Source of the DNA: a virus
Length of the DNA stretch: 57,107 nucleotides
Virus genome (UHGV): UHGV-1334481
Direction: 5' to 3' (one strand)
The notes under the pieces are model-generated. The model made no database searches. It worked only from the letters and a program-made list of their open reading frames with translations, and was not told the origin of the DNA. Positions 36,172 to 53,621 of the stretch are shown in pieces (position 1 is the first letter of the stretch; each line of letters opens with the position of its first letter). Both the position numbers and the translations under genes were made by a program.

Positions 36172-36198
36172 GCCCCGACCGAAAGGTTGGGGCTTTTT
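36172..36198 (+). terminator. rho-independent terminator
   Basis: gccccgacc-gaaa-ggttggggc hairpin followed by TTTTT. Confidence 0.7.
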
Positions 36199-36200
36199 AG

Positions 36201-36208
36201 TATAAATA
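36201..36208 (+). promoter_or_regulatory. late promoter (TATAAATA) upstream of the internal-protein-like gene
   Basis: Exact tataaata 41 nt upstream of ATG 36249. Confidence 0.5.
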
Positions 36209-36248
36209 CAGTAGTATATTAAATCCACGAATTAAAACAGGAAATAAG

Positions 36249-36542
36249 ATGAAATCATATGCTCAATTTTTAAATGAAGCGGTGTTAAATGAAGCATCTA
36301 GCACCGAAATTCAAGCTGTCGCAAAAGCAGCCATTGCAGCGGGTAAATATTCCTATAAAGATGCTTCTGACGAATCACGATTCCAGTTTGCTCGCGACAT
36401 GAAAGCAGAAGGATTTACGGGAAATGCAGTTAGTATGGCCTGGAAAAGTTTAGTTGCTACTGGCGCTGCTTTTGCAAAGGCTTCGGGTAAACCTGCTCCT
36501 AAAGCAGATCCTAAAGCTGCACAAGAAAAAAAATATCGTTAA
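36249..36542 (+). CDS. internal-protein-like protein with CTS (ipII-like size); possible frameshift extension to 36723
   Basis: 97 aa, MKSYAQFLNEAVLNEA... CTS-like N-terminus; an A8 run at 36526-36533 precedes the stop and the +1 frame stays open to 36723. Confidence 0.6.
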   Translation: MKSYAQFLNEAVLNEASSTEIQAVAKAAIAAGKYSYKDASDESRFQFARDMKAEGFTGNAVSMAWKSLVATGAAFAKASGKPAPKADPKAAQEKKYR

Positions 36543-36732
36543 AGGAATTATCGCTAAATATGAAGCTATCCTTAAAGAGCTTTTAGTAATCAAAACCGAA
36601 GGCCAAAAGTTAGCCCGTGCTTATAGTTTCAAAGATAATCCACATGTTCACTCTCTTGAGTATGTTGAAGACATTCAAAAAATTATTAAAGACCGCATTT
36701 GGTCTGCTAAACAAATCAAATAACATTCTTAA

Positions 36733-36758
36733 CCCCGACCAAAAGGTTGGGGCTTTTT
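36733..36758 (+). terminator. rho-independent terminator (near-identical copy of the 36172 terminator)
   Basis: ccccgacc-aaaa-ggttgggg hairpin followed by cTTTTT. Confidence 0.7.
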
Positions 36759-36848
36759 AGTTTGAATCACTCGGATAACGCTGTTACGGATAATAACAAA
36801 GTAATAAATAATTAATAACCAACCGATAGATTATTTCAAGGATTTTAA

Positions 36849-37412
36849 ATGAAAACCTATGCCGAATTTTTAACCGAAGCAGCAAAATTACCATCTGAAG
36901 CAGATCTTACTAAAGTATTCTTCCACTTGGACCCAAAAGACCGCGGCGATTTTCTTAAGTGGAAAGCTAAAGCTATTGAAATGTACAACATCGATAATAG
37001 TTCTTTTACAATGAGTCAAGAAAATAAATTCAATAAAGCATTTTTCAAAATTTCTAAGAAATTGGCATCTGGCGCTCAGGTTCCTAAATCTGTATTAGCT
37101 ACTCCTGAACGCGCACCTGTTAAAATTTCTAAGAATATGTTCGACACTAAAAAATACGTTAATGCTTTGAATAAAGCTCTTGATGCATTGGATGATGCAA
37201 AGAAGGCAGCCCGCGATCTTCAAGACGTGTACACCGATTTTGACCGCAAAACTAAAGGTTCTATTTCAAATAGCGAACGCAATAGTGTAAGTGTTTATTC
37301 TGATAGCCTTGATGTTCTTGGCGATGCGTATACTGAAATTAAAAATCGTATTAACACTGCATCTAAGCTAAAAGCTGCTGCAGAAGCTATAATAACTAAA
37401 CTAGATAAATAA
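36849..37412 (+). CDS. internal-protein-like protein with CTS (ipIII-like size)
   Basis: 187 aa, N-terminus MKTYAEFLTEAAKL; T4 IPIII is 194 aa (memory). Confidence 0.6.
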   Translation: MKTYAEFLTEAAKLPSEADLTKVFFHLDPKDRGDFLKWKAKAIEMYNIDNSSFTMSQENKFNKAFFKISKKLASGAQVPKSVLATPERAPVKISKNMFDTKKYVNALNKALDALDDAKKAARDLQDVYTDFDRKTKGSISNSERNSVSVYSDSLDVLGDAYTEIKNRINTASKLKAAAEAIITKLDK

Positions 37413-37420
37413 TTTTAAAT

Positions 37421-37446
37421 CCCTATCTAAATGATAGGGCTTTTTG
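37421..37446 (+). terminator. rho-independent terminator
   Basis: ccctatc-taaat-gataggg hairpin followed by cTTTTT. Confidence 0.65.
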
Positions 37447-37568
37447 GTATCTAGGCCTTTCTGGGCCTCTCTAGGCATCATTTAGTTTATACCCTTTATA
37501 ATATATTATCCTACCTTTTAATTGCCCCTCCCTGCCCCAGAATTCCCTAAAAATTTTTTCACAAAACT

Positions 37569-37598
37569 GTTTACATCCATGTTCTTCCATGGTACTAT
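37569..37598 (+). promoter_or_regulatory. T4-type early promoter
   Basis: -35 gtttac and -10 ggtactat with an AT-rich upstream tttcacaaaactg element. Confidence 0.55.
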
Positions 37599-37642
37599 AC
37601 AACTATCAACTACTGATACAGAAAAACAACTTGGAGAATGAA

Positions 37643-37906
37643 ATGGATAATTACGGCGAACTGTTCAACTTCTTTATGAAATGCGTTTCAGAAGATTTCG
37701 GTCGTACAGTGAATGATATTAAAGTTATCGGTCCTGATCATCCGATGTTTGAAACTTACGCAGTAATGGGTAATGAAGACGGACAGTGGTATACTGTAAA
37801 GGTTGTGATTAATATGTTCACTGCTGAAGGTTATGTTAAACTGTCTTCTAAAGTTTACCACGATAACGACGAAATCGCAGAAGAATATTTCAATAATATG
37901 AAATAA
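37643..37906 (+). CDS. hypothetical protein
   Basis: Start moved to ATG 37643 (GGAGA RBS) from the tool's 37589; 87 aa. Confidence 0.55.
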   Translation: MDNYGELFNFFMKCVSEDFGRTVNDIKVIGPDHPMFETYAVMGNEDGQWYTVKVVINMFTAEGYVKLSSKVYHDNDEIAEEYFNNMK

Positions 37907-37935
37907 GTTTACATAGGCTCATGATTGAGATATTA
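37907..37935 (+). promoter_or_regulatory. T4-type early promoter with -10 inside an 8-bp inverted repeat
   Basis: -35 gtttac, -10 gatattat; perfect inverted repeat aggctcat/atgagcct (37915-37922 / 37935-37942). Confidence 0.5.
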
Positions 37936-37961
37936 TGAGCCTGTAACTTGAGGAAACCGTT

Positions 37962-38492
37962 ATGTCTCTTTATACAGAACTGAATGAAACTTCCGAAAAA
38001 TCTTTTGATGGTATCTTATCAATAATGCAAAAGCAGGTATTAGAACAGCTTAGTGAAGCCGCAAGCAATGGGCACAAGGCTTGTCGAGTCCGAAGCCCAC
38101 ATCGCCGCATGTATGAACGCCCTCTTATTAATTGGCTAGAAAGCGAAGGTCTTACGGTTAAGATTTGCCCTGCTAAATTTGATGTCCCACGTATTCTTAA
38201 TATTTACTGGGATAAACCGATTGATAAACCGGTTGAGAAAAGTGACCCTTGGGTTGTTAATGTAAAAACATGTGATAATGGATGCTCACTTGAGGTGTCT
38301 GCTGTAATTAAAGGCACTCACGGTGAAAAAACGTGGGGTTGGCCTGGTAAAGATAAAGAAATCGTGTTAAGTGTAAAAGCTACTAGTATTAGTACTCCTA
38401 TAGCTAAAAGCATTATCGCCGCCGCTGTTGAAGAAGCTGAACGAATTTGTAAAATTAAAAATAGTTTACACCTCTTAAATAGCATGATATAA
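37962..38492 (+). CDS. hypothetical protein
   Basis: 176-aa ORF with GAGGAAA RBS. Confidence 0.6.
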   Translation: MSLYTELNETSEKSFDGILSIMQKQVLEQLSEAASNGHKACRVRSPHRRMYERPLINWLESEGLTVKICPAKFDVPRILNIYWDKPIDKPVEKSDPWVVNVKTCDNGCSLEVSAVIKGTHGEKTWGWPGKDKEIVLSVKATSISTPIAKSIIAAAVEEAERICKIKNSLHLLNSMI

Positions 38493-38534
38493 TTCTTCCA
38501 CAGATTTTATTTTTAATCAACCTAAGGAAATACT

Positions 38535-39128
38535 ATGAACACACTAAAGAAAATTGTTGAGTTTATTCGCACTAAACTTGGTTCTGCTATGGCTAAAAAT
38601 CTATCTGTTGAAGAACAGTATACTGCTGCAGCAGCAAAACTGCTTGATAAAATTAAAGATCTAAAAACTGCTTCTGTTAAATCTATTAATGAAGAAAAAC
38701 GTATTCGTGAACTTATTGTCGAAAAGAATCGACAGGCTGAATCAAAAGAGCGTGAAATTCGTAAACTTCTTTCCGAAGGTCAAGATGTAACAATGCATGC
38801 TAAACTCGGTTTACTATATCGTCGAACAGCTGAGCAGTTGACTACTAAGGCTGACGGTTATGCTGAAATGCGAATTGAAATCGCCAAGAAAGTAGTTGAG
38901 TTAGATGATGCTCGTCAAGAGCTTGCAGTTAAATTGGAATATATCCGTGAAACTCGTGCGGCAAATGCCCTTGGAATTAGTACTGCCGATGATGTAGTTG
39001 AAATTGCAGCACTGACTAAGGTTGATATTGAAGATACCCTTGCTCGAGTTGAAACCTTTAATGGTAATATTTCTGGGGTTGAAACTACCTCTGCCGATGT
39101 TCAGGAATACATTAATTCTCTGAAATAA
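38535..39128 (+). CDS. hypothetical protein (coiled-coil-like)
   Basis: 197-aa ORF with AGGAAA RBS; heptad-like charged composition. Confidence 0.6.
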
Positions 39129-39132
39129 TGAT

Positions 39133-39156
39133 AAGGGGCTTCGGCCCCTTATACTT
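39133..39156 (+). terminator. stem-loop, weak terminator
   Basis: aaggggc-ttcg-gcccctt hairpin right after the stop at 39128; downstream U-run is poor. Confidence 0.4.
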
Positions 39157-39169
39157 GGAGTAAATAGGA

Positions 39170-39784
39170 ATGAAAATGAAAATGCAAAGTGATTTCAATT
39201 CAATGTTTGAAGAGTTCCAAAGACAGGTTGATGTTCCAGACCAATTACTAAATGCTCTTAAACGCATGGCAGAAGGACGTAATTACTATTGGGGGTCTTC
39301 ATATGAAACTGATGAAAGTCTTTCTGGAAGATTTTATAGAGGTAAAAAGTCTTTAATACGTCCTGGAATACTCATTAACAGTATTGAATCAATTCATTCA
39401 TTGACATGTGATTTTGATGTTGAATTTACTGATTTCATTTCTCCTGAATGGACGGTTTGTTATTTAAACGACGATTATGATTATCTTGGCGTTTATAGTT
39501 TAAGTGATGCATGGTTTAAACGTAATTTACAAAAATCAAATTTATTTTATATTGATACTACGGTAAAATTTCAGGGAAAGAAATATTTCTTTACTCTTAT
39601 AGTTGACTCTGAAACAAAATATGAAAATAAGCGTATTCTTAGTAAAAAGAATATCTTAACTATTGTTGATGATCTTTTTGATAAATTCGTAGAAAATCCC
39701 AATTTTGAAAGCGATTTATTATTAGAAAAATTTGTTAAGGAATGTAGAGAATATGTCAAAGCCATCACTATACCTTCCAAGTAA
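39170..39784 (+). CDS. hypothetical protein
   Basis: 204-aa ORF with GGAG RBS. Confidence 0.6.
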   Translation: MKMKMQSDFNSMFEEFQRQVDVPDQLLNALKRMAEGRNYYWGSSYETDESLSGRFYRGKKSLIRPGILINSIESIHSLTCDFDVEFTDFISPEWTVCYLNDDYDYLGVYSLSDAWFKRNLQKSNLFYIDTTVKFQGKKYFFTLIVDSETKYENKRILSKKNILTIVDDLFDKFVENPNFESDLLLEKFVKECREYVKAITIPSK

Positions 39785-40145
39785 ACCTGTGAAGTATGAA
39801 CCAAAGCGTCAGCTAATTTCTACTGATGTGTTAATAGGTCCTGTGGTAGCTGTATCATTTGTGATTTTGGTGATTGCTGGAATGGTTATAGACGTTATGA
39901 CTGATATTGAATCTGGTGTAATATTTGGAGCAACACTAATTCTTCCATTGGTAGTTCCGCTTTTATTAGTACCTGTAAATTGGGTAGGATACTGGTATCA
40001 AGGAAGACATTATCGTAAACGTGTACGTGATTGGAAAGCTCAGTGTAAAAAGATTAAAAAGGAACACCAGCTTAAGCTAGATATGTATGAATTTGATGAA
40101 ATTATGAAATTTGTTAAGGAATCACGATGCAAAAGCCAAAACTAA
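39753..40145 (+). CDS. small membrane protein (member of a tandem trio)
   Basis: Start at ATG 39753 (tool ORF began at TTG 39732); two hydrophobic helices then a basic tail; overlaps the upstream gene. Confidence 0.5.
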   Translation: MSKPSLYLPSKPVKYEPKRQLISTDVLIGPVVAVSFVILVIAGMVIDVMTDIESGVIFGATLILPLVVPLLLVPVNWVGYWYQGRHYRKRVRDWKAQCKKIKKEHQLKLDMYEFDEIMKFVKESRCKSQN

Positions 40146-40501
40146 ATAAAGTCAAATATTCTTTTTCTGAGTCATTTTTAATTTTTGCTGTGGCATTGGC
40201 TGCAGCTCTTGCGGGTAGTTTTATTGGATTGTTAATTGACTGTTTTATTTTAAACATCCGCAGTAACGTCAGCGGTATAGTAGATATAATAGAAGTTTGG
40301 AGTGAACTTCATTATACTATAGCAATTTCATTATTTTCATTCTTTGGTACCATGTTATATTTTCATTATGATAATTTTAAAATAAATTGGCAAAGAAAAA
40401 AGGATTACAAAATACAATTAAAGGAATATAATAGCTATATGTCTTATATTGAAAAAGAATCAATGGAAGAGTTTGTGAGTGATTGTAGGAAAATTAAATG
40501 A
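40127..40501 (+). CDS. small membrane protein (member of a tandem trio)
   Basis: 124 aa, two predicted TM helices; start embedded in the upstream gene end (AAGGA RBS). Confidence 0.6.
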   Translation: MQKPKLNKVKYSFSESFLIFAVALAAALAGSFIGLLIDCFILNIRSNVSGIVDIIEVWSELHYTIAISLFSFFGTMLYFHYDNFKINWQRKKDYKIQLKEYNSYMSYIEKESMEEFVSDCRKIK

Positions 40502-40986
40502 TTTTAAAAACTCGCTGGTATGATTTAGATGATGGGGACGATGGCATTTCAGTTGATAGAGTTGACTGGAGCGGCTGTTCTGAAGATACAAAGAAACGAT
40601 TAATTAGGGAGTTTAGAATGGGATATCAAGCAGTTAAGCCATCTACTGTAACAGATGATAAATTCGTGTGTATTCATAATGGTCGTGCTAAGTTAACGAA
40701 TGCTGAATGGTTCACAGATAAGATTATGATTCTGTGGTATATCATTAGTCTTCCTGTGTCATCATTCGTATTTTACTTTTTTATAAAAAATCCAATGGAC
40801 AGAATAGGAGATTGGATTCTTTTAACCATACTTGTTAATATTTTTACAGCATCAATATTATCAGGAATATGGTACATGTTCATTGAAATGCCATGGCGGA
40901 TGCGCAGACAACAAAAGATTTTTGATGAAAAGAAATATGCTCAAAATTTAAATAATTTTATCACTGAATGCAGGAAATTAAAATGA
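40498..40986 (+). CDS. small membrane protein (member of a tandem trio)
   Basis: 162 aa, hydrophobic segments; ATGA start/stop overlap with neighbours. Confidence 0.6.
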   Translation: MILKTRWYDLDDGDDGISVDRVDWSGCSEDTKKRLIREFRMGYQAVKPSTVTDDKFVCIHNGRAKLTNAEWFTDKIMILWYIISLPVSSFVFYFFIKNPMDRIGDWILLTILVNIFTASILSGIWYMFIEMPWRMRRQQKIFDEKKYAQNLNNFITECRKLK

Positions 40987-41423
40987 AAACACTATCAGCT
41001 GGTATTATCTTTATGACAGAAGATAAAGATTTATTTATGGGACGAGTTACTGGTTCTCGTAAACATGGAATGATGGCACATCGCTGGGATATTCCAAAGG
41101 GGCGTGTAGAAAGTTCTGATTTAAGCGCACTAGATGCAGCACGAAGAGAATGCTTAGAAGAGACTGGCTTTAGCAATTATAATCCAGACCTTCTAGAAGA
41201 CTTAGGTGTATTTAAATATTCTAGTAATAAAGACTTACAGTTATTTTATTATACGATTCCAGTAGAGCATGAGATGTTTAGAAATTGCCATTGCGAGTCT
41301 TATTTTGAAAATAAAGATGGCGTTATGATTCCAGAGATGGATGCTTTTGCTCTTATTCCTCGTACTCAGTGGCAATATGTGATGGGCCCTTCACTTTACC
41401 GAATAATGAACAGCCTCTTTTAA
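40983..41423 (+). CDS. nudE: Nudix hydrolase NudE (e.1)
   Basis: Nudix box GRVESSDLSALDAARRECLEETGF; start at ATG 40983 coupled to the upstream stop; about 147 aa (T4 e.1 is 151 aa). Confidence 0.8.
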   Translation: MKTLSAGIIFMTEDKDLFMGRVTGSRKHGMMAHRWDIPKGRVESSDLSALDAARRECLEETGFSNYNPDLLEDLGVFKYSSNKDLQLFYYTIPVEHEMFRNCHCESYFENKDGVMIPEMDAFALIPRTQWQYVMGPSLYRIMNSLF

Positions 41424-41954
<531 letters not shown>

Positions 41955-41958
41955 AGTT

Positions 41959-41988
41959 GTTTACTTTCTCCTAGAATTGTGATAGTAT
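41959..41988 (+). promoter_or_regulatory. T4-type early promoter with -10 inside an 8-bp inverted repeat
   Basis: -35 gtttac, -10 gatagtat; perfect inverted repeat aattgtga/tcacaatt (41975-41982 / 41991-41998). Confidence 0.5.
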
Positions 41989-42013
41989 ATTCACAATTAC
42001 TTGGAGGGATAAA

Positions 42014-42430
42014 ATGACTCGTATTAATTTGACTTTAGTATCTGAACTTGCTGATCAACATTTAATCGCAGAATACCGCGAATTGCCACGTGTTTTTGGT
42101 ATAGTTCGTAAACATGTAGAAAATGGTAAGCGGGTTAAAGATTTTAAAATATCTTCTGAGTTTATTTTAGGTTCTGGTCATGTTACGTTCTTTTATGATA
42201 AGTTAGAATTTTTGCGAAAGCGTCAATCAGACATTATAGCGGAATGCTTAAAACGTGGGTTTAGTATAAAAGATACTGAAGTTCCTGACATCAGCGATAT
42301 TCCAGCAGAATGGAAAAATGATTATAACCCATGCAAATCAGCTATTAAGTTGAGTCAACAACGACTCGATGAAAAAATTTTAATGAAGCCACACTGGTAT
42401 AAATACTACGGCAAAAATATTTACATTTAA
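42014..42430 (+). CDS. denV: endonuclease V (pyrimidine dimer DNA glycosylase) DenV
   Basis: 138 aa, [29 protein letters not shown]...; matches T4 endo V length and sequence (memory). Confidence 0.93.
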
Positions 42431-42439
42431 AGGAAACAC

Positions 42440-42913
42440 ATGAAAACATATCAAGAATTTATCACTGAAGCAGCTATTAATTCTCAAATTATCGCTGAAT
42501 CTTTTACTGATCTTTTGAAATTTAAAAAAGGTCAAAAAATCACTGCTGTATTGGATGATGGTACAGAAGTTGAGATGGATGTACAGGGATATAATTATGC
42601 AGTAGATGGAAAACTGTATAATAAATCTCACGCTAAATTTGATTCATTTGACGACTTTGTTAATACGGTTGAAGATGAAAAAACTCGTAGATCCATTGCA
42701 ACTGGCGACGCTAAGGTTCTTATGGCACACGGTCATGAACGTATCCGCGCCAAACAGAATAAAATGGGTGAAGATAATTTCGCATTAGTTGGTTATCAAT
42801 CTGGTAAACAAACTTATGGTTATCAGCGTACTGCTACCATGTATAACAAAAATGGTAAAATCGCTTTCGTGAATAGCAAAGGTTCTATTCAGTACGTCAA
42901 ATCATTCAAATAA
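42440..42913 (+). CDS. internal-protein-like protein with CTS
   Basis: 157 aa, N-terminus MKTYQEFITEAAI (CTS-like); adjacent to denV. Confidence 0.6.
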   Translation: MKTYQEFITEAAINSQIIAESFTDLLKFKKGQKITAVLDDGTEVEMDVQGYNYAVDGKLYNKSHAKFDSFDDFVNTVEDEKTRRSIATGDAKVLMAHGHERIRAKQNKMGEDNFALVGYQSGKQTYGYQRTATMYNKNGKIAFVNSKGSIQYVKSFK

Positions 42914-43066
42914 GCAAATAAGAAATATGGGAACAAGCTGGACCTCATGATTCTATGAGGGATTCCCGCCAACCTGTAATAAGGTCGAGCCCAAGTGCGG
43001 TAATGGGTAAATACAGAAATGGACAATTCATGTGCCATGGAATGGCCCAAATTTAGAGAGAATAAA

Positions 43067-43911: not shown

Positions 43912-43938
43912 ATAAATTTATTTTCTAATTGAGGTTAT

Positions 43939-44781: not shown

Positions 44782-45059
44782 TGGCTCAATTAAGCGCAGG
44801 GTTTGGTTATGAGTATTATACTGCCCCTCGTCGTGTATCTGTTGCTCCTAAGAAAATTCAAAGTCTTGATGACTTCCAAGAAGTAGTCCGTAAAGCTTTC
44901 CAGGACTATGCACGTTATCTTAAAGAAGATTCACAGGACTGTCTCGAAGAAGATGAAATTGCTTACTATGAGCAGCGTCTTGAACAGCTTAAAAACCTAC
45001 ATGAGGTCCGTGCAGAAGTTTCAAAGTCTATGAATAAATTGATTAGATTTAAAGAATAA
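44781..45059 (+). CDS. hypothetical protein
   Basis: Start at ATG 44781 (GAGGAAAA RBS); 92 aa. Confidence 0.5.
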
Positions 45060-45062
45060 CTG

Positions 45063-45090
45063 TTTACTTTTCCTCTTGACTGTGGTATAA
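45063..45090 (+). promoter_or_regulatory. T4-type early promoter
   Basis: -35 gtttac and -10 tataat, followed by AAGAGGAG RBS. Confidence 0.55.
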
Positions 45091-45118
45091 TTTTTCTATC
45101 AGTTAAGAGGAGAATAAC

Positions 45119-45580
45119 ATGACTATCAACACAGAAGTTTTTATCCGTCGAAATAAGCTTCGTCGTCACTTTGAGTCGGAGTTTCGTCAAATTAACAATG
45201 AGATTCGTGAGGCATCAAAAGCAGCAGGAGTCTCATCGTTTCATCTAAAATATTCTCAGCATCTTCTTGATCGTGCAATTCAACGGGAGATTGATGAGAC
45301 ATATGTTTTTGAATTATTCCACAAAATAAAAGACCACGTTTTAGAAGTTAATGAATTCCTGAGTATGCCTCCACGTCCTGATATTGACGAGGATTTTATT
45401 GATGGGGTTGAATACCGTCCTGGACGTTTAGAAATCACAGATGGAAATCTTTGGCTTGGATTTACGGTTTGTAAACCTAATGCGAAGTTCAAAGACCCGT
45501 CGCTTCAATGCAGGATGGCAATTATCAACAGTCGTCGTTTACCAGGAAAGGCTTCTAAAGCAGTAATTAAAACTCAATGA
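45119..45580 (+). CDS. hypothetical protein
   Basis: 153-aa ORF with strong RBS. Confidence 0.6.
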   Translation: MTINTEVFIRRNKLRRHFESEFRQINNEIREASKAAGVSSFHLKYSQHLLDRAIQREIDETYVFELFHKIKDHVLEVNEFLSMPPRPDIDEDFIDGVEYRPGRLEITDGNLWLGFTVCKPNAKFKDPSLQCRMAIINSRRLPGKASKAVIKTQ

Positions 45581-46133: not shown

Positions 46134-46473
46134 AATTTTGGTTTTATGTATAGGATTAATTTCATTTTCTGCTTCTGCGTTAGCAGATACATCATATACT
46201 GAAATTAGAGAGTATGTAAACCGTACTGCCGCGGATTATTGTGGGAAAAATAAAGCATGCCAAGCTGAATTTGCGCAGAAATTAATATATGCATATAAAG
46301 ACGGAGAAAGAGATAAATCAAGCAGATACAAAAATGATACATTGTTAAAACGATATGCTAAAAAGTGGAATACCTTAGAATGTTCAGTTGCGGAGGAGAA
46401 AGATAAAGCCGCTTGTCATTCAATGGTTGACCGTTTAGTAGATTCTTATAATCGAGGATTGAGTACTAGATGA
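46126..46473 (+). CDS. secreted Cys-containing protein
   Basis: Signal peptide MTKILVLCIGLISFSASALA; 4 Cys in the mature part. Confidence 0.55.
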   Translation: MTKILVLCIGLISFSASALADTSYTEIREYVNRTAADYCGKNKACQAEFAQKLIYAYKDGERDKSSRYKNDTLLKRYAKKWNTLECSVAEEKDKAACHSMVDRLVDSYNRGLSTR

Positions 46474-46949
46474 TTGTAAAATATATCAAGGGCGATATTG
46501 TCGCCCTATTTCTTCAAGGTAATATTATTGCGCACGGGTGCAATTGCTTCCACACAATGGGCTCTGGCGTAGCGGGTCAATTAGCAAGAGCCTATCCCAA
46601 AATTTTAGAAATAGATAAAACCACTACCGAGTACGGTTCTCGTGATAAATTAGGCGATATGTCTATTGTTTTTAAACATAGTCCTACGGGATTTGGTATA
46701 TGCTATAACCTGTATACACAATACGAACCGGGTCCTAATCTTGATTATGGTGCTTTAGTAAACTGCATGATAGAATTAAATCTACAGGCAGAAACCCTTT
46801 TGTTTAAACCAGTAATTTACATTCCACGTATAGGTTGCGGTATTGCTGGCGGCGATTGGGATAAGGTTTCTAAATTAATCGACATGTTTACTCCTGATAT
46901 TGATTTAATAGTGGTGGATTATGAAAGTACATTACCCGCATCCGTTTGA
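46470..46949 (+). CDS. macro-domain-like protein (putative ADP-ribose binding/hydrolase)
   Basis: Motifs GDIV..., HGCNCFHTMGSGVAGQL and IPRIGCGIAGGDW resemble macro-domain signatures; by eye only. Confidence 0.45.
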   Translation: MIVKYIKGDIVALFLQGNIIAHGCNCFHTMGSGVAGQLARAYPKILEIDKTTTEYGSRDKLGDMSIVFKHSPTGFGICYNLYTQYEPGPNLDYGALVNCMIELNLQAETLLFKPVIYIPRIGCGIAGGDWDKVSKLIDMFTPDIDLIVVDYESTLPASV

Positions 46950-47133
46950 TCCTAAAAACAAAGTGGAAATTATTCGTCAATGGGAACGCATTTGCCGTAC
47001 TAAATGCCCAATTAATAGTCCACATGGTGTAGATAAAGACTATATTGGAACATTCGTTGAATATACCTTTATTGATAAGAAAGGTCGTAAACAACACGTA
47101 GAAGAATATTGTTTAAAGGTTACATGGTTATGA
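46921..47133 (+). CDS. hypothetical protein
   Basis: 70-aa ORF overlapping the upstream 3' end. Confidence 0.45.
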   Translation: MKVHYPHPFDPKNKVEIIRQWERICRTKCPINSPHGVDKDYIGTFVEYTFIDKKGRKQHVEEYCLKVTWL

Positions 47134-47336
47134 GCCAAACAAGTATTCTTAAAAATGCCCACTGCGAAAAGTGTGAATGGCCAGTTGTTTTTGCTTTATG
47201 TAATGATGAAATGGCTTGTGATTTCGATTATTGGTGCTATTGTTCTAATAAAGGATGCATCAATCATAAAGGTGAAGGATTTTATTCAGGATTTTATCCT
47301 TATCCCGATTTCGTTAAAGAAGGTAAACCGAAATGA
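47130..47336 (+). CDS. Cys-rich small protein (putative zinc-binding)
   Basis: Start at ATG 47130 (ATGA overlap); CxxC pairs CEKC...CNDEMAC...CYCSNKGC. Confidence 0.45.
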   Translation: MSQTSILKNAHCEKCEWPVVFALCNDEMACDFDYWCYCSNKGCINHKGEGFYSGFYPYPDFVKEGKPK

Positions 47337-47506
47337 ATAGTTTTGAGTTACAATATGAAGTGTTACGTGAGCTTGATAATTTAATTGAACTCGCTGTCAA
47401 TAAAGGTTTTGCCATTGGAATCGGTCAAAAAGATACTGGTCATTTAACTATGGAAATATTTAAGCAAAAGCGAATTATTTTAAAACTCCTGGAAATTAAT
47501 ATATGA
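47333..47506 (+). CDS. small hypothetical protein (57 aa)
   Basis: Hand-found ORF below the tool cutoff; ATGA-coupled at both ends. Confidence 0.4.
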   Translation: MNSFELQYEVLRELDNLIELAVNKGFAIGIGQKDTGHLTMEIFKQKRIILKLLEINI

Positions 47507-47688
47507 GTCTGAGTAAAGAACAAAAAGATAAATTGTTTGAGCTTATCCATGAACTTCTAGATGAGCATACAGAAGCAAACACCTTTTATGATGAATACGG
47601 CCCGCTATCTCCCGATCAACAAGAAGAATTTGCTGATCGGTTTGATAAGAAAGAAAACGAATTAATAGCTTATGTGAATACGCTTTAA
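47503..47688 (+). CDS. hypothetical protein
   Basis: 61-aa acidic ORF, ATGA-coupled. Confidence 0.5.
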   Translation: MSLSKEQKDKLFELIHELLDEHTEANTFYDEYGPLSPDQQEEFADRFDKKENELIAYVNTL

Positions 47689-47697
47689 GAAGGTGAT

Positions 47698-48279
47698 ATG
47701 GCGAGTTTAATTTTTACTTACGCAGCAATGAATGCTGGAAAATCTGCTTCTCTTTTGACTGCTGCGCATAATTATAAAGAACGCGGAATGGGTGTATTAG
47801 TTCTTAAGCCTGCTATTGATACTCGTGATTCTGTCTGTGAAGTCGTTTCTCGCATTGGAATTAAGCAGGAAGCGAATATTATTACGGATGATATGGATAT
47901 TTTTGAGTTCTATAAATGGGCTGAAGCACAAAAGGATATTCATTGTGTATTTGTAGATGAAGCCCAGTTTTTAAAAACTGAACAGGTGCATCAATTAAGC
48001 CGAATTGTTGATACATATAATGTTCCTGTTATGGCTTATGGACTAAGGACTGATTTCGCTGGAAAATTATTTGAAGGTTCTAAAGAACTTTTGGCGATTG
48101 CAGATAAACTTATTGAACTAAAAGCAGTTTGTCATTGTGGTAAAAAAGCTATTATGACAGCTCGATTAATGGAAGATGGAACGCCAGTTAAAGAAGGTAA
48201 TCAAATCTGTATTGGTGATGAAATTTATGTTTCTTTGTGTAGAAAACATTGGAATGAATTAACTAAAAAGCTTGGTTAG
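47698..48279 (+). CDS. tk: thymidine kinase
   Basis: 193 aa; P-loop MNAGKSASLL, VDEAQF motif and C-terminal Cys cluster; same length as T4 Tk. Confidence 0.92.
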   Translation: MASLIFTYAAMNAGKSASLLTAAHNYKERGMGVLVLKPAIDTRDSVCEVVSRIGIKQEANIITDDMDIFEFYKWAEAQKDIHCVFVDEAQFLKTEQVHQLSRIVDTYNVPVMAYGLRTDFAGKLFEGSKELLAIADKLIELKAVCHCGKKAIMTARLMEDGTPVKEGNQICIGDEIYVSLCRKHWNELTKKLG

Positions 48280-48321
48280 TGCAAAAGTTATAAATAGGTT
48301 TATCTAACTAAAGGGGTATAT

Positions 48322-48534
48322 ATGCTACAATTAACTGAAAAGCAACTTCGCAATCTTACTGTTCTTCAATTAGATGAAATTCGTAGGGAAGTTGGAAATA
48401 TCATTTCAGCTTTGCGTCGAGAAGTATCACTCAACCAATCTCCGGCAGACTATACTAGATTGCGAAATTTTGAAAAATACCTTGATAAAGTTAAGGCCGT
48501 GCATCGGCATAAAGTAAATACAGGACAAAAATGA
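48322..48534 (+). CDS. hypothetical protein
   Basis: 70-aa ORF with RBS between tk and rI. Confidence 0.5.
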
Positions 48535-48546
48535 TAGGAGGCCTTT

Positions 48547-48840
48547 ATGGCCTTAAAAGCAACGGCACTATTTGCCATGCTAGGATTAGCATTTGCTTTG
48601 TCTCCACCGATTGAAGCGAATGTCGATCCTCATTTTGATAAATTTATGGAATCTGGTATTAGACACGTTTATATGCTTTTTGAAAATAAAAGCGTAGAAT
48701 CATCTGAACAGTTCTATAGTTTTATGCGAACGACCTATAAAAATGACCCGTGCTCTTCCGATTTTGAATGTATAGAACGAGGCGCGGAGATGGCACAATC
48801 ATACGCTAGAATTATGAACATTAAATTGGAGACTGAATGA
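48547..48840 (+). CDS. rI: lysis inhibition regulator RI (secreted antiholin)
   Basis: 97 aa with N-terminal signal-anchor MALKATALFAMLGLAFALSPPIEA; matches T4 RI in length, location next to tk and sequence (memory). Confidence 0.7.
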   Translation: MALKATALFAMLGLAFALSPPIEANVDPHFDKFMESGIRHVYMLFENKSVESSEQFYSFMRTTYKNDPCSSDFECIERGAEMAQSYARIMNIKLETE

Positions 48841-49223
48841 AATTCAGCGACTTTTCACAAAGTGGAAAACCTTCAAAGGCAGATGAATACTTAGGTTTAT
48901 TAATGGCTGCACAAGCTTATTTTCATTCTGCGCATTTTGAAACTAAAAGTTATGCTAGACACAAAGCATACGATTTTATTTTCTCTGAATTGCCAGATTT
49001 GATTGATAAATTTGGTGAGCAATATTTAGGGTATTCTGGTAGAAAATACACGCCTTCAATTCCAGATGCCAGTAAACTTCCTACCGACACAATTAAAATG
49101 ATTGATCGCATACTAGACCAATCTAACAGCATTTATAAAGAAATGCCTCCAGCCATTCAAAGCACGATAGATGATATTACTGGGATGTTTTACCAGAGCA
49201 AATATCTTCTTTCCCTCGAATAA
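48837..49223 (+). CDS. hypothetical protein (rI.1 position)
   Basis: 128-aa ORF coupled to the rI stop. Confidence 0.55.
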
Positions 49224-49227
49224 CATT

Positions 49228-49251
49228 AGTCTCCTTCGGGAGACTTTTTTC
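49228..49251 (+). terminator. rho-independent terminator
   Basis: agtctcc-ttcg-ggagact hairpin followed by TTTTTT. Confidence 0.7.
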
Positions 49252-49260
49252 ATTTTACCA

Positions 49261-49290
49261 GTTTACTTTCAATTTGAGCTGTGATACTAT
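49261..49290 (+). promoter_or_regulatory. T4-type early promoter
   Basis: -35 gtttac, -10 gatactat, 10 nt after the terminator hairpin. Confidence 0.55.
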
Positions 49291-49318
49291 ACAACCATCG
49301 GATAAAGAGGAGAACATC

Positions 49319-49507
49319 ATGAAAATTGAAGCACTCAATCAAGAAGGAAATATCTACGTCATCATTAATGGTGATTTTTTCGTCAACATGGATGAAGTTA
49401 CTAGTGAAGAACTTGTAGAACTTCTTAAGAAACGTTATGATATGTGTGATGAAGCTGCAACTCATATGGCGTGTGCAATATTCTCTCTTTCATATGTGGT
49501 GGAATAA
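49319..49507 (+). CDS. hypothetical protein
   Basis: Start at ATG 49319 (AAGAGGAGAA RBS); 62 aa. Confidence 0.5.
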
Positions 49508-49710
49508 TGACTAGAATTGAACAAGCAGATAAAATTAAAGAATTGGTAGCTTTAATTCGCAAAGCAGATGAGGAACTTAGTGACTTTGCTTGGTTTTCGG
49601 CAGGCATTGCAAATAAAGGTATTGAAAAATTTGAAGCTAAAGTTGATAATGCTGTAGAAGCTTTAGATATGTTTCTTGATGAAATTATCGATCATAATAC
49701 GAGAGTTTAA
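49507..49710 (+). CDS. hypothetical protein
   Basis: Start at ATG 49507 overlapping the upstream stop; 67 aa. Confidence 0.5.
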   Translation: MTRIEQADKIKELVALIRKADEELSDFAWFSAGIANKGIEKFEAKVDNAVEALDMFLDEIIDHNTRV

Positions 49711-49712
49711 GT

Positions 49713-49907
49713 ATGCTAACACGTGAACAGTTTGAAAAAATTATTAAATTAGCACGTGATGTTGAAATAGATTCATATCAATTAGCAGTTGAGCATTGTG
49801 AAGGATACTCATACGATGGTATAGAAGCAGCTAAAAAGGATTTGGATAAATCCAAAGCTAAGTTAGTTCAATATCTTGAAATGATTAGGTGGAATAATGA
49901 AAACTGA
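49713..49907 (+). CDS. hypothetical protein
   Basis: 64-aa ORF. Confidence 0.5.
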   Translation: MLTREQFEKIIKLARDVEIDSYQLAVEHCEGYSYDGIEAAKKDLDKSKAKLVQYLEMIRWNNEN

Positions 49908-50070
49908 AAAGCAGATGTTTTTAATGAAGCTAATTGAAGAATATGCTAATGCAGTTTCTGACTATGAGTATTCTGCTCGAGAAAGAGGTACAGCTTTCGC
50001 AAAGGAAGAAATGAAAATCATGGTTGATGCTCACACAAAGCTTCAGAATTTTATTGAAAACGTCATTTAA
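49897..50070 (+). CDS. small hypothetical protein (57 aa)
   Basis: Hand-found ORF below the tool cutoff; start overlaps the upstream gene end. Confidence 0.4.
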   Translation: MKTEKQMFLMKLIEEYANAVSDYEYSARERGTAFAKEEMKIMVDAHTKLQNFIENVI

Positions 50071-50072
50071 TG

Positions 50073-50102
50073 GTTTACAAGTTGGCAAGGTTATGATATA
50101 GT
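50073..50102 (+). promoter_or_regulatory. T4-type early promoter
   Basis: -35 gtttac and -10 gatatagt. Confidence 0.5.
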
Positions 50103-50237
50103 AATCTTGTCAACTGCCAAGGAGAAGAGAATGAAAGTTTTGTTTGTTGTGTATGTGATGATTCAATATAATTATCCAATGTTTACTTATAATCTGGTGA
50201 ACAATATTATTGATATTATTCAAAGGAGTATGTAATT

Positions 50238-50537
50238 GTGAGTGAGTCGAAGAGAATCAATATGAAACGATTAGTATTAGAAGTTAGTCCGCTTTTTGGT
50301 GAATTGGCTATAGAAAAAGTAAATAACATGTATCGTTTGACACAAGAAGACGATATGCTGTATTTTATGCCTAGTGAAATCATTCATTTAACCCAAATTG
50401 AATATCCTTATACTGATAAAATAGTAAGCATCAATGATGAGCACAAAATTCATTTTTATTCTTCATGCCCAGGATTTAATATTAAAAGTGAGTCAATGTG
50501 CTTATCAATTAATAATTTAATTGGGATAATTTTATAA
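50238..50537 (+). CDS. hypothetical protein (GTG start); possibly the 5' part of a gene continuing in another frame to 50809
   Basis: 99-aa ORF with AGGAG RBS 9 nt upstream of GTG; a second frame is open for 97 codons from 50516 to 50809 with no usable start. Confidence 0.45.
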   Translation: MSESKRINMKRLVLEVSPLFGELAIEKVNNMYRLTQEDDMLYFMPSEIIHLTQIEYPYTDKIVSINDEHKIHFYSSCPGFNIKSESMCLSINNLIGIIL

Positions 50538-50815
50538 CTTACATTAAATATTTTTATTATTCTAATGAAAGAAAACATAGTTTAAAATGGCTCAAAAATT
50601 GCAATGCTATTATTACTAACGCTTGCGATCAGTGCGATCAAAATGATGAAACTGTTTTAAATGTGTCAAAATGCTATGAAGATGGAGATGTCTTAACTAT
50701 TCGTCAAATTGATGATTTTCGTTCACATATTGTCACATTTACCAAAGACGAAGCTATTGCGCTAAAGACTTATCTCGATTCTGTCATTCCAACTATGATT
50801 TCAAAGTGAGGAAAT

Positions 50816-51337
50816 ATGTTTATTTCAAGTGAAAGCGGTTTAATTCGTGTTGAATTTAAAAATGACATCTTTCTTATTCAAGGAGATGATATTATTAAAA
50901 TGAGTTATGATGAAATCAAGAAAATTTGTCATGCTCTTGAAAGTCATGGAAAAGTGAACGCTGTTATTGATATTGGCGATTTATGGGTGACACTTTATGA
51001 AGTATCCGAAGGATTTAACATTGAAGATGAAAATAACATTTTAGCTATTGATAAAAGAAGTGATTTGTTTGATGTGTTAAAAGTTTATGAACAGTCAAAC
51101 GGTGGAAGAAAAGCTGTATTGATTTATCAAAAACCACATTCATGTGGAACTGCTTCAATCATTTCAGATATTGAAGATGAAACTGATACTTATATGTGTG
51201 TTTTAAAAGCTGGTGGTGACCGTCATCCGGATTTTATTTCTATTCGTCAAAACAATGGAGAAATTTCATTATCAAAATCAGAAGCTGAAGCTATGATTAA
51301 GTATTTAACAACTGTTACACCTTCAATGAAAGGATGA
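50816..51337 (+). CDS. hypothetical protein
   Basis: 173-aa ORF with GAGGAAA RBS. Confidence 0.55.
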   Translation: MFISSESGLIRVEFKNDIFLIQGDDIIKMSYDEIKKICHALESHGKVNAVIDIGDLWVTLYEVSEGFNIEDENNILAIDKRSDLFDVLKVYEQSNGGRKAVLIYQKPHSCGTASIISDIEDETDTYMCVLKAGGDRHPDFISIRQNNGEISLSKSEAEAMIKYLTTVTPSMKG

Positions 51338-51819
51338 TTATAATTATGATTATTAATGAAAACTCTTGGCACTTTAAAATTTACTCGGCATTTAACAGCA
51401 CATGGAATCGTCCAAAAACGTTATGTGCTTATTTTTGGAAAACGTTTCTCCCGGTATTAGCGGTTTCAATTGTTGGATTTGCAACTTTAACAGGTGCTGC
51501 AATAATTGGCCAAGAAATTTTAATTAAATTCTTTGTCTTTAGTAGTCTATGGACATTAATTCCAGCTTCAATTGGTATAGGCATTTTAGCATTATCGGTC
51601 ATGGTTCTTATTGCTGTCGGGGCGGTAATTGGTCCTTCCTGGTTGTTAGACAAATATAACGACCGAAAGCTCAATAAAGAAATTGAGCTCATTGTACAAA
51701 ACGAAGAACGAATCAAAAATGGACTTGAGCCTATTCAACCCAAGAAATCTATTATCGTCGAATTTTTAAAAGCGCGTAAAGCTAAAGTATGTCCTGTTAT
51801 TGAATATAAGGCTGAATGA
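51334..51819 (+). CDS. membrane protein
   Basis: 161 aa with several hydrophobic helices; the start may instead be ATG 51346. Confidence 0.55.
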   Translation: MIIIMIINENSWHFKIYSAFNSTWNRPKTLCAYFWKTFLPVLAVSIVGFATLTGAAIIGQEILIKFFVFSSLWTLIPASIGIGILALSVMVLIAVGAVIGPSWLLDKYNDRKLNKEIELIVQNEERIKNGLEPIQPKKSIIVEFLKARKAKVCPVIEYKAE

Positions 51820-52829
51820 TGAAAACAGTAATGAAAAGCTATTTTGGTAGTCATCTTTATGGAACTTCTACTCCAGAATCTGATGTAGATTTTAAAGAAA
51901 TCTTTGTTCCTCCTGCTCGTGATATTCTTATCGGAAATGTTAAAGAGCATATGAGTAAAAACACTAACAACACATCATCTAAAAACACTAAAGATGATAT
52001 TGACCATGAACTATACAGTCTTAAGTATTTCTTTAAATTAGCAGCAGATGGTGAAACTGTAGCATTGGATATGCTCCACACTCCACCTGAACTGGTAGTT
52101 AAATCTGATTTGCCTGATGTATGGAAGTTTATTCAAGACAATCGTTCTCGTTTTTATACGACTAACATGAAATCCTACTTAGGATATGTTCGCAAGCAAG
52201 CTTCTAAATACGGTGTTAAGGGTTCTCGTTTGGCCGCATTACGTGATGTATTGAAAGTAGTTAATCAAATCCCTGAGCAATGGGTTGATTACCAAGAAGA
52301 CGGTTCCATTAAGCAGCGTCGAACTAAAGTTGAAGATATTAAGCATCGTCTTCCAGAGAACGAATTCTGTGAATGGGTATTCCATAATCATGAGAAAACA
52401 GGCCCACAAACGTTCTACACTGTGTTGGGTCGTAAATATCAAACAACACTTTCTCTTATTGAGCTTAAGCAATCTTTGAATAAACTTGATGCTGAATACG
52501 GCGAACGTGCTCGTAAGGCTGAAGCGAATGAGGGCATTGACTGGAAAGCTCTGAGTCATGCTTGCCGTGGTGGACTCCAACTATTGGAAATTTACAAAAC
52601 TGGTGACTTAGTCTATCCACTTCAAGACGCTCCATTTATTCTCGACGTGAAGTTGGGTAAACATCCATTTAAAACTGTTCAAGAGTTTTTGGAAGATGTG
52701 GTCGATCAAGTAGAAGCAGCATCCATTGAAGCTTCTAAGAACGGTATACAGCAAAAAGTAGACATGTGTTTTTGGGATGACTTCCTTGAGAGGGTTTATC
52801 TTGAAAACCATCGAAGTTATTATAAATGA
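51816..52829 (+). CDS. nucleotidyltransferase-fold protein (Pol-beta-like NTase motif)
   Basis: 337 aa; N-terminal GS...(10 residues)...DVD motif (YFGSHLYGTSTPESDVDF) typical of minimal nucleotidyltransferases; by eye only. Confidence 0.55.
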   Translation: MMKTVMKSYFGSHLYGTSTPESDVDFKEIFVPPARDILIGNVKEHMSKNTNNTSSKNTKDDIDHELYSLKYFFKLAADGETVALDMLHTPPELVVKSDLPDVWKFIQDNRSRFYTTNMKSYLGYVRKQASKYGVKGSRLAALRDVLKVVNQIPEQWVDYQEDGSIKQRRTKVEDIKHRLPENEFCEWVFHNHEKTGPQTFYTVLGRKYQTTLSLIELKQSLNKLDAEYGERARKAEANEGIDWKALSHACRGGLQLLEIYKTGDLVYPLQDAPFILDVKLGKHPFKTVQEFLEDVVDQVEAASIEASKNGIQQKVDMCFWDDFLERVYLENHRSYYK

Positions 52830-52831
52830 TA

Positions 52832-52856
52832 GGGAGCCTTCGGGTTCCCTTTTTTA
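52832..52856 (+). terminator. rho-independent terminator
   Basis: gggagcc-ttcg-ggttccc hairpin followed by TTTTTT. Confidence 0.7.
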
Positions 52857-52944
52857 TTTCAAAATTTTTTCACAAAACGGTTTACAAGCATTAGTGTCCC
52901 GCTCGGTTTATTTGGATTTGGGTGTTCACACTAATGAAGAAATT

Positions 52945-53157
52945 ATGGTCAGGGTTGAAGATGTTATTCTTTCAACTGACATGATGCAAAAGCGTGGTCT
53001 TTCTGATGAAGAAACTTATAAAGCATTATCATGGATGAAAGTTAATGTTAATCGTTTACGCAATGTTTCACTGCGTACTGCTCTTTATCTTGCTGACTTT
53101 ATTATGACCGACAAAAACGGTTGGGAAGAAATCGCTGAGGTTACTCTTCTGAAATAA
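52945..53157 (+). CDS. hypothetical protein (start uncertain)
   Basis: Tool ORF 52777-53157 spans the terminator and promoter; first plausible ATG downstream of them is 52945; RBS weak. Confidence 0.35.
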   Translation: MVRVEDVILSTDMMQKRGLSDEETYKALSWMKVNVNRLRNVSLRTALYLADFIMTDKNGWEEIAEVTLLK

Positions 53158-53258
53158 TTCATAAGAGGACTTCTATGACAAAAAGGCAGTTCAGAAATAG
53201 ATTATATGGACTGCCATTAAAAAGATGACTAGAATTAAACTGGTGAATGGAGGTAGTG

Positions 53259-53561
53259 ATGTTATACTCAAAGGCTCGTGAAATTTACGAAACTAAAATT
53301 AAAGAAGCAGTATTTCAGTTCGCAACGACAATGCGATGGACAAATGACTGGGAGTATTCAAAAAATCATAAGAAGCCCATGGTGACAAGAAAGGCTCATA
53401 TGTTAGTGTTAATAGACCGTGAGCAGATTAAAGCCCGAGAAGCCCTCCAGAATCACAAAAAGGCTGCCTTTGAATGGTTTATGGATAACACTGCTCCTGA
53501 GACCAAGAAAGCGGTAAGTGCATGGTTCAGTGGAAAAAATTGTGAAAGAAGTTTCTTTTAG
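53259..53561 (+). CDS. hypothetical protein
   Basis: Start at ATG 53259 with GGAGG RBS (the tool's ATG 53247 lies inside the RBS); 100 aa. Confidence 0.5.
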   Translation: MLYSKAREIYETKIKEAVFQFATTMRWTNDWEYSKNHKKPMVTRKAHMLVLIDREQIKAREALQNHKKAAFEWFMDNTAPETKKAVSAWFSGKNCERSFF

Positions 53562-53563
53562 TG

Positions 53564-53593
53564 GTTTACAAGACTGTTCCTCTGTGGTATTAT
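53564..53593 (+). promoter_or_regulatory. T4-type early promoter
   Basis: -35 gtttac, -10 tattat; leader ttaccctatcaactac is identical to the one at 33250-33265. Confidence 0.5.
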
Positions 53594-53621
53594 TACCCTA
53601 TCAACTACGGAGGAACAGAAA

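Follow-up and report, generated by a model that had tools for sequence, protein, structure and literature searches.

Do the repeated promoters and terminators in the early region of a T4-like phage mark the places at which its accessory genes are exchanged, and do they take an active part in that exchange? This question is raised by UHGV virus genome UHGV-1334481, the whole 57,107-nt stretch of which was analysed and is referred to here as the window. Terminator hairpins and early promoters of similar sequence recur between its small genes, and an earlier reading of the sequence (the original prediction) had likened them to the promoter-early stem-loop (PeSL) modules proposed to mediate recombinational shuffling of small genes in T4-like phages. 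The modules exceed the expectation from shuffled sequence, and comparison with related phages revealed that the junctions of insertions and deletions (indels) sit in register inside them. The modules are probably ordinary regulatory punctuation that serves passively as patches of homology, rather than a dedicated mobile system. The recombination pathway, the direction of each event, and the activity of the promoters and terminators in this phage are points that we infer.

The window is a segment of a Tequatrovirus (T4-like) genome in which the + strand is the direction of early transcription. The stretch from 32 to 55.5 kb shares 98.5% identity with Tequatrovirus phages, UGKSEcP2 among them, and has matches in about 1,100 phage records; it belongs to the 'hyperplastic' portion of a T4-type genome, where genes are early and non-essential. 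Using gene names transferred from pSs-1, T2, and RB55 (assigned to the species Tequatrovirus T4 in its record, 'T4-like RB55'), the order reads 57B, the ipI locus, trna.4 to trna.2, nine tRNAs, rnaD/rnaC, e.8 to e, denV, and an internal-protein (IP) gene, followed by vs.8 to regB, vs, tk.4 to tk, rI, the mobD region, and nrdC.11 to nrdC.6. All named genes from 57B to nrdC.6 lie on the + strand in T4 gene order, and every module, terminator, and cassette described below is on that strand as well. The IMG/VR loci around e and tk supplied four or five Tequatrovirus contigs, too few for statistics, and 15 annotated GenBank genomes were therefore added; the final set of 19 relatives consists of these 15 genomes and four IMG/VR contigs. 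Alignments obtained with blastn were chained over 31.0–57.1 kb and events of at least 100 nt were counted, resulting in 61 distinct indel or replacement events with 68 distinct breakpoints.

Predicted early promoters and terminators of the window

The motif GTTTAC-N16-18-TAnnnT has 13 matches, all on the + strand, compared with 2.14 ± 1.37 expected. Twelve of them fall at 32.5–56.6 kb, in the early accessory-gene region, and the single match within 1–31 kb is probably due to chance. For the T-even PeSL consensus TTTACW-N17-TAYWAT, 10 exact matches were found against 0.24 expected, again exclusively on the + strand. The promoter matches are placed ahead of start codons, and the modules built around them share one layout: an UP-like A/T tract, GTTTAC, an 18-nt spacer, TAnnnT, a short leader, and a GGAG-type Shine-Dalgarno (SD) sequence. 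Both the A/T-rich tract 5' of the −35 and the SD and start codon at the 3' end are seen directly in the aligned modules, four of which also share an upstream AAAAT(A/T)(A/T)TTTCACAAA (repeat families D2 and D7). Terminator-like sites number 24, compared with 10.7 ± 3.6 expected. At 36171, 36733, 37421, 49228, and 52831, a G+C-rich hairpin with a U-run follows a stop codon, as expected of intrinsic terminators, with fold energies from −10.5 to −20.3 kcal/mol.

Several features that characterize PeSLs are found in the window, namely the promoter boxes, a stem-loop, the A/T tract with SD and ATG, a hyperplastic location, and an association with indel junctions. Judged by their sequence, the sites are most likely intrinsic terminators and strong early promoters of the T-even type, which together make up the normal regulatory punctuation of the early region.

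In the original prediction, terminator hairpins were paired with promoters shortly 3' of them. Two such pairs are intact: the hairpin at 37421–37439 followed by GTTTAC-N18-TACTAT at 37569, and the composite element at 49216–49320, in which the promoter at 49261 stands directly after the terminator at 49228–49245. In the third (52832/52879), the hairpin (52831–52850) is there and GTTTAC stands at 52879, but the sequence lacks a TAnnnT at the proper spacing; its origin is described below.

Gene content changes at the modules

When gene content in related T-even genomes is set against the positions of module copies, the check suggested by the original prediction, it differs exactly between the copies at many modules. 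Of the 68 breakpoints, 23 fall in modules that cover 6.6% of the region, where 4.5 would be expected (binomial p = 3e-11 under a uniform null). Surviving indels, however, should lie between genes anyway. Gene boundaries that bear a module have on average 3.2 events, compared with 0.92 for those without one (Mann-Whitney p = 0.001). In genomes that lack an insert, the homology at the junction amounts to 71, 43, 27, 21, 17, 14, and 9 nt within promoter or terminator modules; elsewhere it comprises 36 nt in the SD and capsid-targeting sequence and 22, 15, and 14 nt in SD+ATG.

Several of these events involve IP genes. The proteins encoded at 32649, 32974, and 42440 begin with MKTFKEFAAK, MKTFKEFIAE, and MKTYQEFITE, respectively, and match PHROG families of internal head or virion proteins; an N-terminus like MKTYQEFIAE is what we take to be the T-even internal-protein capsid-targeting sequence. 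All three genes have the make-up of T-even IP cassettes, with a conserved block of promoter and targeting sequence, and form a tandem of ip5-like and ip7-like genes at the ipI locus and an ip4 adjoining denV. The ip5-like promoter module (32544–32648, −35 at 32589, family D2) and the ip7-like module (32874–32978, with GCTTAC at 32919) share 83% identity over 71 nt. In the window, the ip5-like cassette lies between copies of a 71-nt repeat, and among the relatives only IMG/VR contig 2974787500 (L004) lacks this cassette. The ip7-like cassette is missing in seven relatives; its left junction, at 32959, lies inside the ip7-like promoter module, and on both sides of it stands the 21-nt repeat TGATACTATTACCCTATCAA, within which lies the promoter leader singled out in the original prediction. 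In phage W143, an additional IP gene has 27 nt of promoter on either side, and teqsoen and REP1 carry one flanked by 36 nt of SD and capsid-targeting codons. The boundary at denV (module 41914–42018, −35 at 41959) has experienced six events; in UGKSEcP2, ipII is inserted here between two copies of the denV promoter, a duplication of about 43 nt. Separately, Shigella phage CM8 (L100) has an annotated tandem duplication of a 57B fragment, Ip5, and IpI at its ipI locus (281–2403), a further rearrangement inside the promoter-rich IP region.

The e.7 slot, bounded by the promoters at 37907 (module 37862–37966) and 38464 (the e.6 module, 38419–38523), exists in at least seven states, and seven distinct events have a junction at 37906–37964, that is, at its left promoter. 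The slot between nrdC.11 and nrdC.10 holds at least four alternative contents among the 16 relatives that keep the nrdC.10 promoter. At 50236|50259, at the 3' edge of a pair of early promoter modules (50028–50240, −35 at 50073 and 50181), eight relatives have one or two additional genes. The shuffling of small genes anticipated by the original prediction is therefore seen as cassettes gained, lost, or swapped at many modules, but not at all of them. The modules at 45062 (the regB promoter, 45017–45121), 50073, and 53564 have no event in the relatives, and the pair of identical leaders discussed below coincides with no breakpoint in any of the 19.

Two cassettes bounded by terminators

Plain terminators serve as junctions as well. 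The sequence CCCCGACC(G/A)AAAGGTTGGGGCTTTTT occurs at 36173–36198 and 36733–36758, as the original prediction had noted, although the spacing is 560 nt rather than 561; the two matches compare with 0.00 expected in 100 shuffles. Each copy folds into a G+C-rich hairpin with a U-run behind it (−20.3 kcal/mol with z −4.2 for copy 1, and −15.1 kcal/mol for copy 2). The similarity extends over about 40 nt (36/40, family D6) and ends outside that stretch. A weaker third member of the family, overlooked in the original prediction, is the terminator at 37421–37445 (CCCTATC-loop-GATAGGGCTTTTT, −10.5 kcal/mol).

These three terminators delimit two cassettes. Copy 1 (36171–36198), on the 3' side of the tRNA/rnaD/rnaC block, bounds the x474 cassette (36199–36732; gene 36249–36723) on the left. 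Copy 2 (36733–36758) closes x474 and opens the x564 cassette (36759–37420; gene 36849–37412, 187 amino acids), and the third terminator is the right boundary of both. Relatives carry none, one, or two of the cassettes. In the 10 relatives that lack x564, the junction 36758|37437 has a 9-nt overlap, GGGCTTTTT, between the terminators at 36733 and 37421. RB55, T2, RB7, and W143 lack both cassettes, and their junction, 36203|37437, falls in the GGGCTTTTT of the terminators at 36171 and 37421; the empty site retains one hybrid terminator, with the left flank of copy 1 and a right flank from downstream of the last cassette. In relatives that keep x474, a gene of 474 nt, the twin terminators are up to 30/30 identical, and in the record of phage NBG2 the x474 homologue has an annotated terminator on either side.

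Both predicted proteins begin with MK(S/T)YA(Q/E)FL(N/T)EA, which resembles the T4 internal-protein capsid-targeting sequence; the likeness is confined to this N-terminal motif, and both belong to phrog_2280, a family of unknown function. On this sequence evidence, x474 and x564 are candidate internal proteins and may form a third internal-protein locus. That this would be a terminator-bounded locus whose products are injected is a speculative extension of the same idea. A recent tandem duplication of a gene with its terminator was considered and rejected; despite the shared phrog_2280, BLASTP similarity covers the first 11 residues only, and the near-identical terminators flank x474 instead of following each gene. 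The x564 gene is found as a single copy in 165 phage records, and is absent from most Tequatrovirus records; of the 165, all records listed label it 'hypothetical' or 'Phage protein'. An extra A (A8 at 36526–36533, compared with A7 in four relatives) divides the x474 gene into two ORFs, and reflects either a genuine frameshift or a sequencing error in the homopolymer.

A TATAAATA box, which we take to be the T4 late-promoter consensus, lies at 36202–36209, directly 3' of the terminator at 36171 and 5' of x474. It is part of the inserted cassette, because T4-type genomes read GGTATCTA at that point. On the other side of the cassettes, an unusually C-rich, non-coding spacer of about 120 nt (37446–37568) separates the terminator at 37421 from the e.8 promoter (module 37524–37628, −35 at 37569, family D7). 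This spacer is conserved at 90–95% in all relatives that align there and has no match in Rfam.

A deletion scar at nrdC.10

The promoter that the original prediction placed at 52879 is not intact; it has no −10 and is a deletion scar. Alignment to the relatives indicates a deletion of 745 bp, which took away the −10, the leader, and three-quarters of nrdC.10 from its 5' end and joined the promoter's TTTACAAGCAT to an identical 11-mer inside nrdC.10. What is left is the terminator with an amputated promoter (52828–52891), in which the UP-like element and the −35 are kept, and a 3' remnant of nrdC.10 (52892–53157). The 31 nt at 52861–52891 are 90% identical to the upstream part of the e.8 module. 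All 17 relatives that reach 52879 align in two pieces, and none shares the scar; 16 of them have a complete nrdC.10 promoter and gene. The 17th, phage Shinka, has an independent 3.6-kb deletion with its left end in the module at 49216–49320, where the −10 region GTGGTACTA of the promoter at 49261 was joined to a matching 9-mer 22 nt upstream of the window's right junction. Deletions therefore do involve promoter elements (the −35 in the window and the −10 in Shinka), but in these two cases the partner was a chance match within a gene. Since its other end lies inside a gene, the deletion at 52879 is not a module-to-module exchange. Nor does it mark a shared lineage, as 12 of the 12 best GenBank phage matches listed align in two pieces; no copy of the junction was found in IMG/VR.

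A probable conversion patch in the nrdC.8 promoter

The leader TTACCCTATCAACTAC was predicted to be identical at two distant promoters. This holds for the copy at 33250–33265, in the trna.4 early promoter module (33176–33280, −35 at 33221), and the second copy, in the nrdC.8 module (53519–53623, −35 at 53564), is found at 53593–53608, one base from where it had been placed. The exact match is 18 nt long (TATTACCCTATCAACTAC; 33248–33265 and 53591–53608) and sits in a 43-nt stretch of 86% identity (family D1). All 15 GenBank relatives read TGTGGTACTATACAACTATCAACTACGGAGG in the nrdC.8 promoter, whereas the window reads TGTGGTATTATTACCCTATCAACTACGGAGG, four changes within 9 nt that are all toward the trna.4-type promoter. 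The T2 version of the trna.4 promoter is an exact 21-nt match to the window's nrdC.8 allele. This allele is present at 100% identity in nine of 476 matching records, and nearly all others are below 99%. From these comparisons, the identical leader looks like a short patch of ectopic gene conversion between promoters 20 kb apart.

Passive homology as the probable explanation, and its competitors

Because the modules are alike and the accessory genes between them are unrelated, the modules are often the only homology available. We propose that the phage recombination and replication machinery uses them passively as homology patches of 9–71 nt. If the gene between two similar modules is deleted, one hybrid module would be left; if a gene is inserted, a module would be duplicated; a gene between modules could also be replaced, and one module could overwrite part of another by short-patch gene conversion.

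Several observations weigh against a special role for the modules. With gene boundaries as the null, the association is only marginal, with 12 of 15 module-bearing and 20 of 38 module-less boundaries hit (Fisher p = 0.06). Spacers that bear a module average 78 nt, compared with 11 nt for the others, and thus offer a larger neutral target. The busiest slots often hold IP genes, which are probably under diversifying selection, so the high counts may reflect selection rather than a propensity to recombine, and the events come from 19 genomes that are phylogenetically non-independent. Indels at 34121|34655, 35492|35858, 42013|42425, and 42431|42927 have no junction homology, and some of the homologies measure 9–14 nt, a length at which homologous recombination looks no different from replication slippage or illegitimate joining.

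Selection might instead act only as a filter, with illegitimate indels occurring anywhere, the intergenic ones surviving, and moron-like accessory genes bringing their own promoters, so that the modules are bystanders. The near-equal use of module-less boundaries, module-bearing spacers about seven times as long, and the several indels without homology are consistent with this explanation. So is a further control, in which hidden Markov model segmentation of single-nucleotide polymorphism (SNP) density against 15 relatives yielded 95 mosaic switch points as a proxy for ordinary homologous exchange. Ten of the 95 fall at modules, compared with 6.2 expected (p = 0.09), and the switch points are enriched neither there nor at gene boundaries. 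A filter alone is nevertheless unlikely to account for the data. At least 12 pure indels have 9–71 nt of homology in register with repeated modules and a single hybrid at the empty site, which random joining would almost never produce. The nrdC.8 conversion patch alters no gene content and so cannot be explained by a filter on gene integrity, and two independent deletions pair a promoter element with a 9–11-mer inside a gene, so that a non-intergenic end survived.

At the other extreme, the modules could be sites for a dedicated protein that moves cassettes, for example as integron-like mini-circles, between loci and phages. Mini-circles have been detected experimentally in RB49/phi1 (PMC2839356); in UGKSEcP2, a promoter of the IP type (TGATACTATTACCCTATCAAAAC) is present at a third locus, the nrdC.10 slot; and the terminator junctions, with their GGGC motif, bring to mind deletions described in T4 (Mosig 1998, as cited in PMC2839356). 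Such an active system is still less likely than a selection filter. No cassette was found at two different loci among the 19 relatives, which differ only by presence, absence, or replacement at fixed slots, and the junctions use any repeated punctuation, including SD+ATG and the coding capsid-targeting sequence, instead of a single defined site. No recombinase is known for such phages (PMC2839356), and the window itself was not searched for one. The SNP switch points led us to reject the modules as general recombination hot spots.

We consider it very unlikely that the exchange is driven by homing endonucleases, with Seg, Mob, and intron-like enzymes cutting nearby and co-conversion of the flanks changing gene content. 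Genes of this kind do change in the region, including segB-like and HNH genes in the tRNA block, a mobD swap at 50831|51815, and an intron-like endonuclease at 53138|53173 in RB7, W143, and L004. However, in the annotated relatives the IP, x474/x564, e.7-slot, and ipII events neither contain nor adjoin an endonuclease gene, and the junctions of module events lie in repeats rather than at endonuclease boundaries. That the repeats are meaningless products of A+T-rich DNA is scarcely credible: one exact repeat of 16–18 nt in 57 kb is only moderately unlikely (an estimated 0.02–0.4 expected pairs, by length and base composition), but shuffles give 0.00 for the terminator pair, 2.1 against 13 promoters, and 0.24 against 10 consensus matches, and the promoter matches all lie on one strand ahead of start codons.

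Passive use of the modules as homology patches thus remains the likely explanation, with the proviso that it extends to other repeats. Module-less boundaries are also often hit, and where indels there have junction homology, they use SD+ATG repeats of 14–22 nt. Taken together, the boundary, SD+ATG, and switch-point controls favour passive use of short repeats flanking non-homologous inserts over targeted recombination.

A stem-loop across the −10

The original prediction had equated the stem-loop of a PeSL with the terminator hairpin upstream of the promoter. When each module was folded from the −35 to the start codon, the PeSL stem proved to lie mostly inside the promoter: in nine of the 13 modules at 32589–56610, a strong hairpin spans the −10, with its 5' arm in the spacer, its 3' arm in the leader, and the −10 in or near the loop (z −2.0 to −6.4). 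Examples are the ip5-like (−17.4 kcal/mol, z −4.4), denV (−18.8 kcal/mol, z −4.0), regB (−22.4 kcal/mol, z −4.9), and nrdC.8 (−25.5 kcal/mol, z −6.4) modules, as well as the left edge of the e.7 slot, where a 13-bp stem crosses the −10 (−19.3 kcal/mol, z −3.7). The modules at 38464, 49261, 50181, and 56541 have no internal stem, and three modules additionally have an upstream terminator hairpin. Because the stems differ in register across paralogous modules, permutation of spacer and leader partners was used rather than column-wise covariation. Spacers pair with their own leaders at −13.0 kcal/mol and with other leaders at −8.2 kcal/mol (permutation p ≤ 5e-5), and RB55 and T2 show this module-specific pairing as well.

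Formation of the hairpin requires read-through RNA or single-stranded DNA. As only transcripts from upstream can form it, the hairpin could attenuate read-through RNA or mask its SD, which is included in the 3' arm at denV (41959), regB (45062), and nrdC.8 (53564). It is possible, though we advance the idea tentatively, that this stem-loop is a general and selected part of T-even early promoters. If so, the promoter's own transcript would stay open and each cassette would be a self-insulated expression unit; the hairpin could also favour template switching between modules.

Other variable features of the region

The stretches at 34761–35492 and 35509–35859 comprise the block of nine tRNA genes and an ORF of 116 amino acids, which lies flush between tRNA-Arg and rnaD and is missing from 10 relatives. 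In relatives, the tRNA block varies in tRNA-Tyr, tRNA-His, and tRNA-Thr/Pro/Gln, as well as in homing-endonuclease genes between the tRNAs. An Rfam scan of 32–55 kb returned the nine tRNAs only, with no family over the hairpins or the rnaC/rnaD region. Further downstream, the mobD.1-like gene (50238–50809; 534–546 nt in relatives) is interrupted, with a 99-amino-acid ORF ending at 50537 and a small length difference at 50511–50520 in the alignments. Between nrdC.10 and nrdC.9 (53138–53173), the intron-like endonuclease gene inserted in RB7, W143, and L004 measures about 720 nt, and the window has the empty site.

Implications for T4-like genomes

The results confirm, at the level of individual junctions and with controls, that in a T4-like phage the regulatory punctuation of the accessory-gene region is where that region is rebuilt. 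Such rebuilding helps explain swaps of host-range and anti-defence genes such as those for internal proteins. Two cautions for the PeSL idea follow: any repeated punctuation serves as a junction, and recombination in general is not concentrated at the modules. In annotating the genome, nrdC.10 and its promoter should be described as a deletion scar, and x474 and the mobD.1-like gene as disrupted.

Comparison with known systems

The main elements of this account are already known from Repoila et al. 1994 (as cited in later work), PMC2839356, and PMC4122927, and in this respect the window is one more T4-like genome. In RB49/phi1, Arbiol et al. 2010 (PMC2839356) described PeSLs and the part these play at indels, showed by reporter assays that they act as promoters and terminators/attenuators, and speculated about active mobile cassettes. 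Comeau et al. 2014 (PMC4122927) extended PeSLs to PST/T4 and nt-1/KVP40, including degraded half modules, and an extended consensus of T4 early promoters has been published (PMC2988021). The modules of the window share with PeSLs the composite of A/T-rich tract, early promoter, stem-loop, and SD/ATG, the hyperplastic location upstream of small genes of unknown function, and the proximity to insertions, deletions, and replacements between close relatives. The half modules of PST, which have a −35 and a stem-loop but no −10 (PMC4122927), have a counterpart at 52831–52891. The T-even PeSLs in PMC4122927 place the stem-loop just upstream of the promoter, whereas nine of 13 in the window place it across the −10, as in RB49/phi1. 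The window's junctions also differ from PeSLs in using plain terminators, SD+ATG, and the coding capsid-targeting sequence.

Polymorphism elements at T-even IP loci were reported by Repoila et al. 1994, as cited in PMC2839356 and PMC4122927. As at those loci, variable gene bodies in the window lie between conserved blocks of promoter and capsid-targeting sequence, and relatives differ by whole cassettes; x474 and x564 differ in being bounded by terminators rather than promoters and in lying outside the two IP loci named in PMC2839356. The lambdoid morons of Hendrix et al. 2000, as discussed in PMC2839356, are likewise single accessory genes with their own promoter and terminator between resident genes, and the x474 cassette, with its TATAAATA box, gene, and terminator, fits that description. 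According to the same discussion, morons are thought to insert without conserved flanks, whereas the cassettes of the window are flanked by repeats of resident modules and co-oriented with their neighbours. Deletions of small T4 ORFs between short direct repeats, often with a GGGC motif, were described by Singer et al. 1982 and Mosig et al. 1998 (as cited in PMC2839356). They resemble the terminator junctions at GGGCTTTTT and the nrdC.10 and Shinka deletions at 9–11-nt matches; by that account the T4 deletions are laboratory mutants, whereas the events described here are deduced from natural isolates. Against this background, the nrdC.10 scar, the conversion patch, and the two terminator-bounded cassettes are specific to the window.

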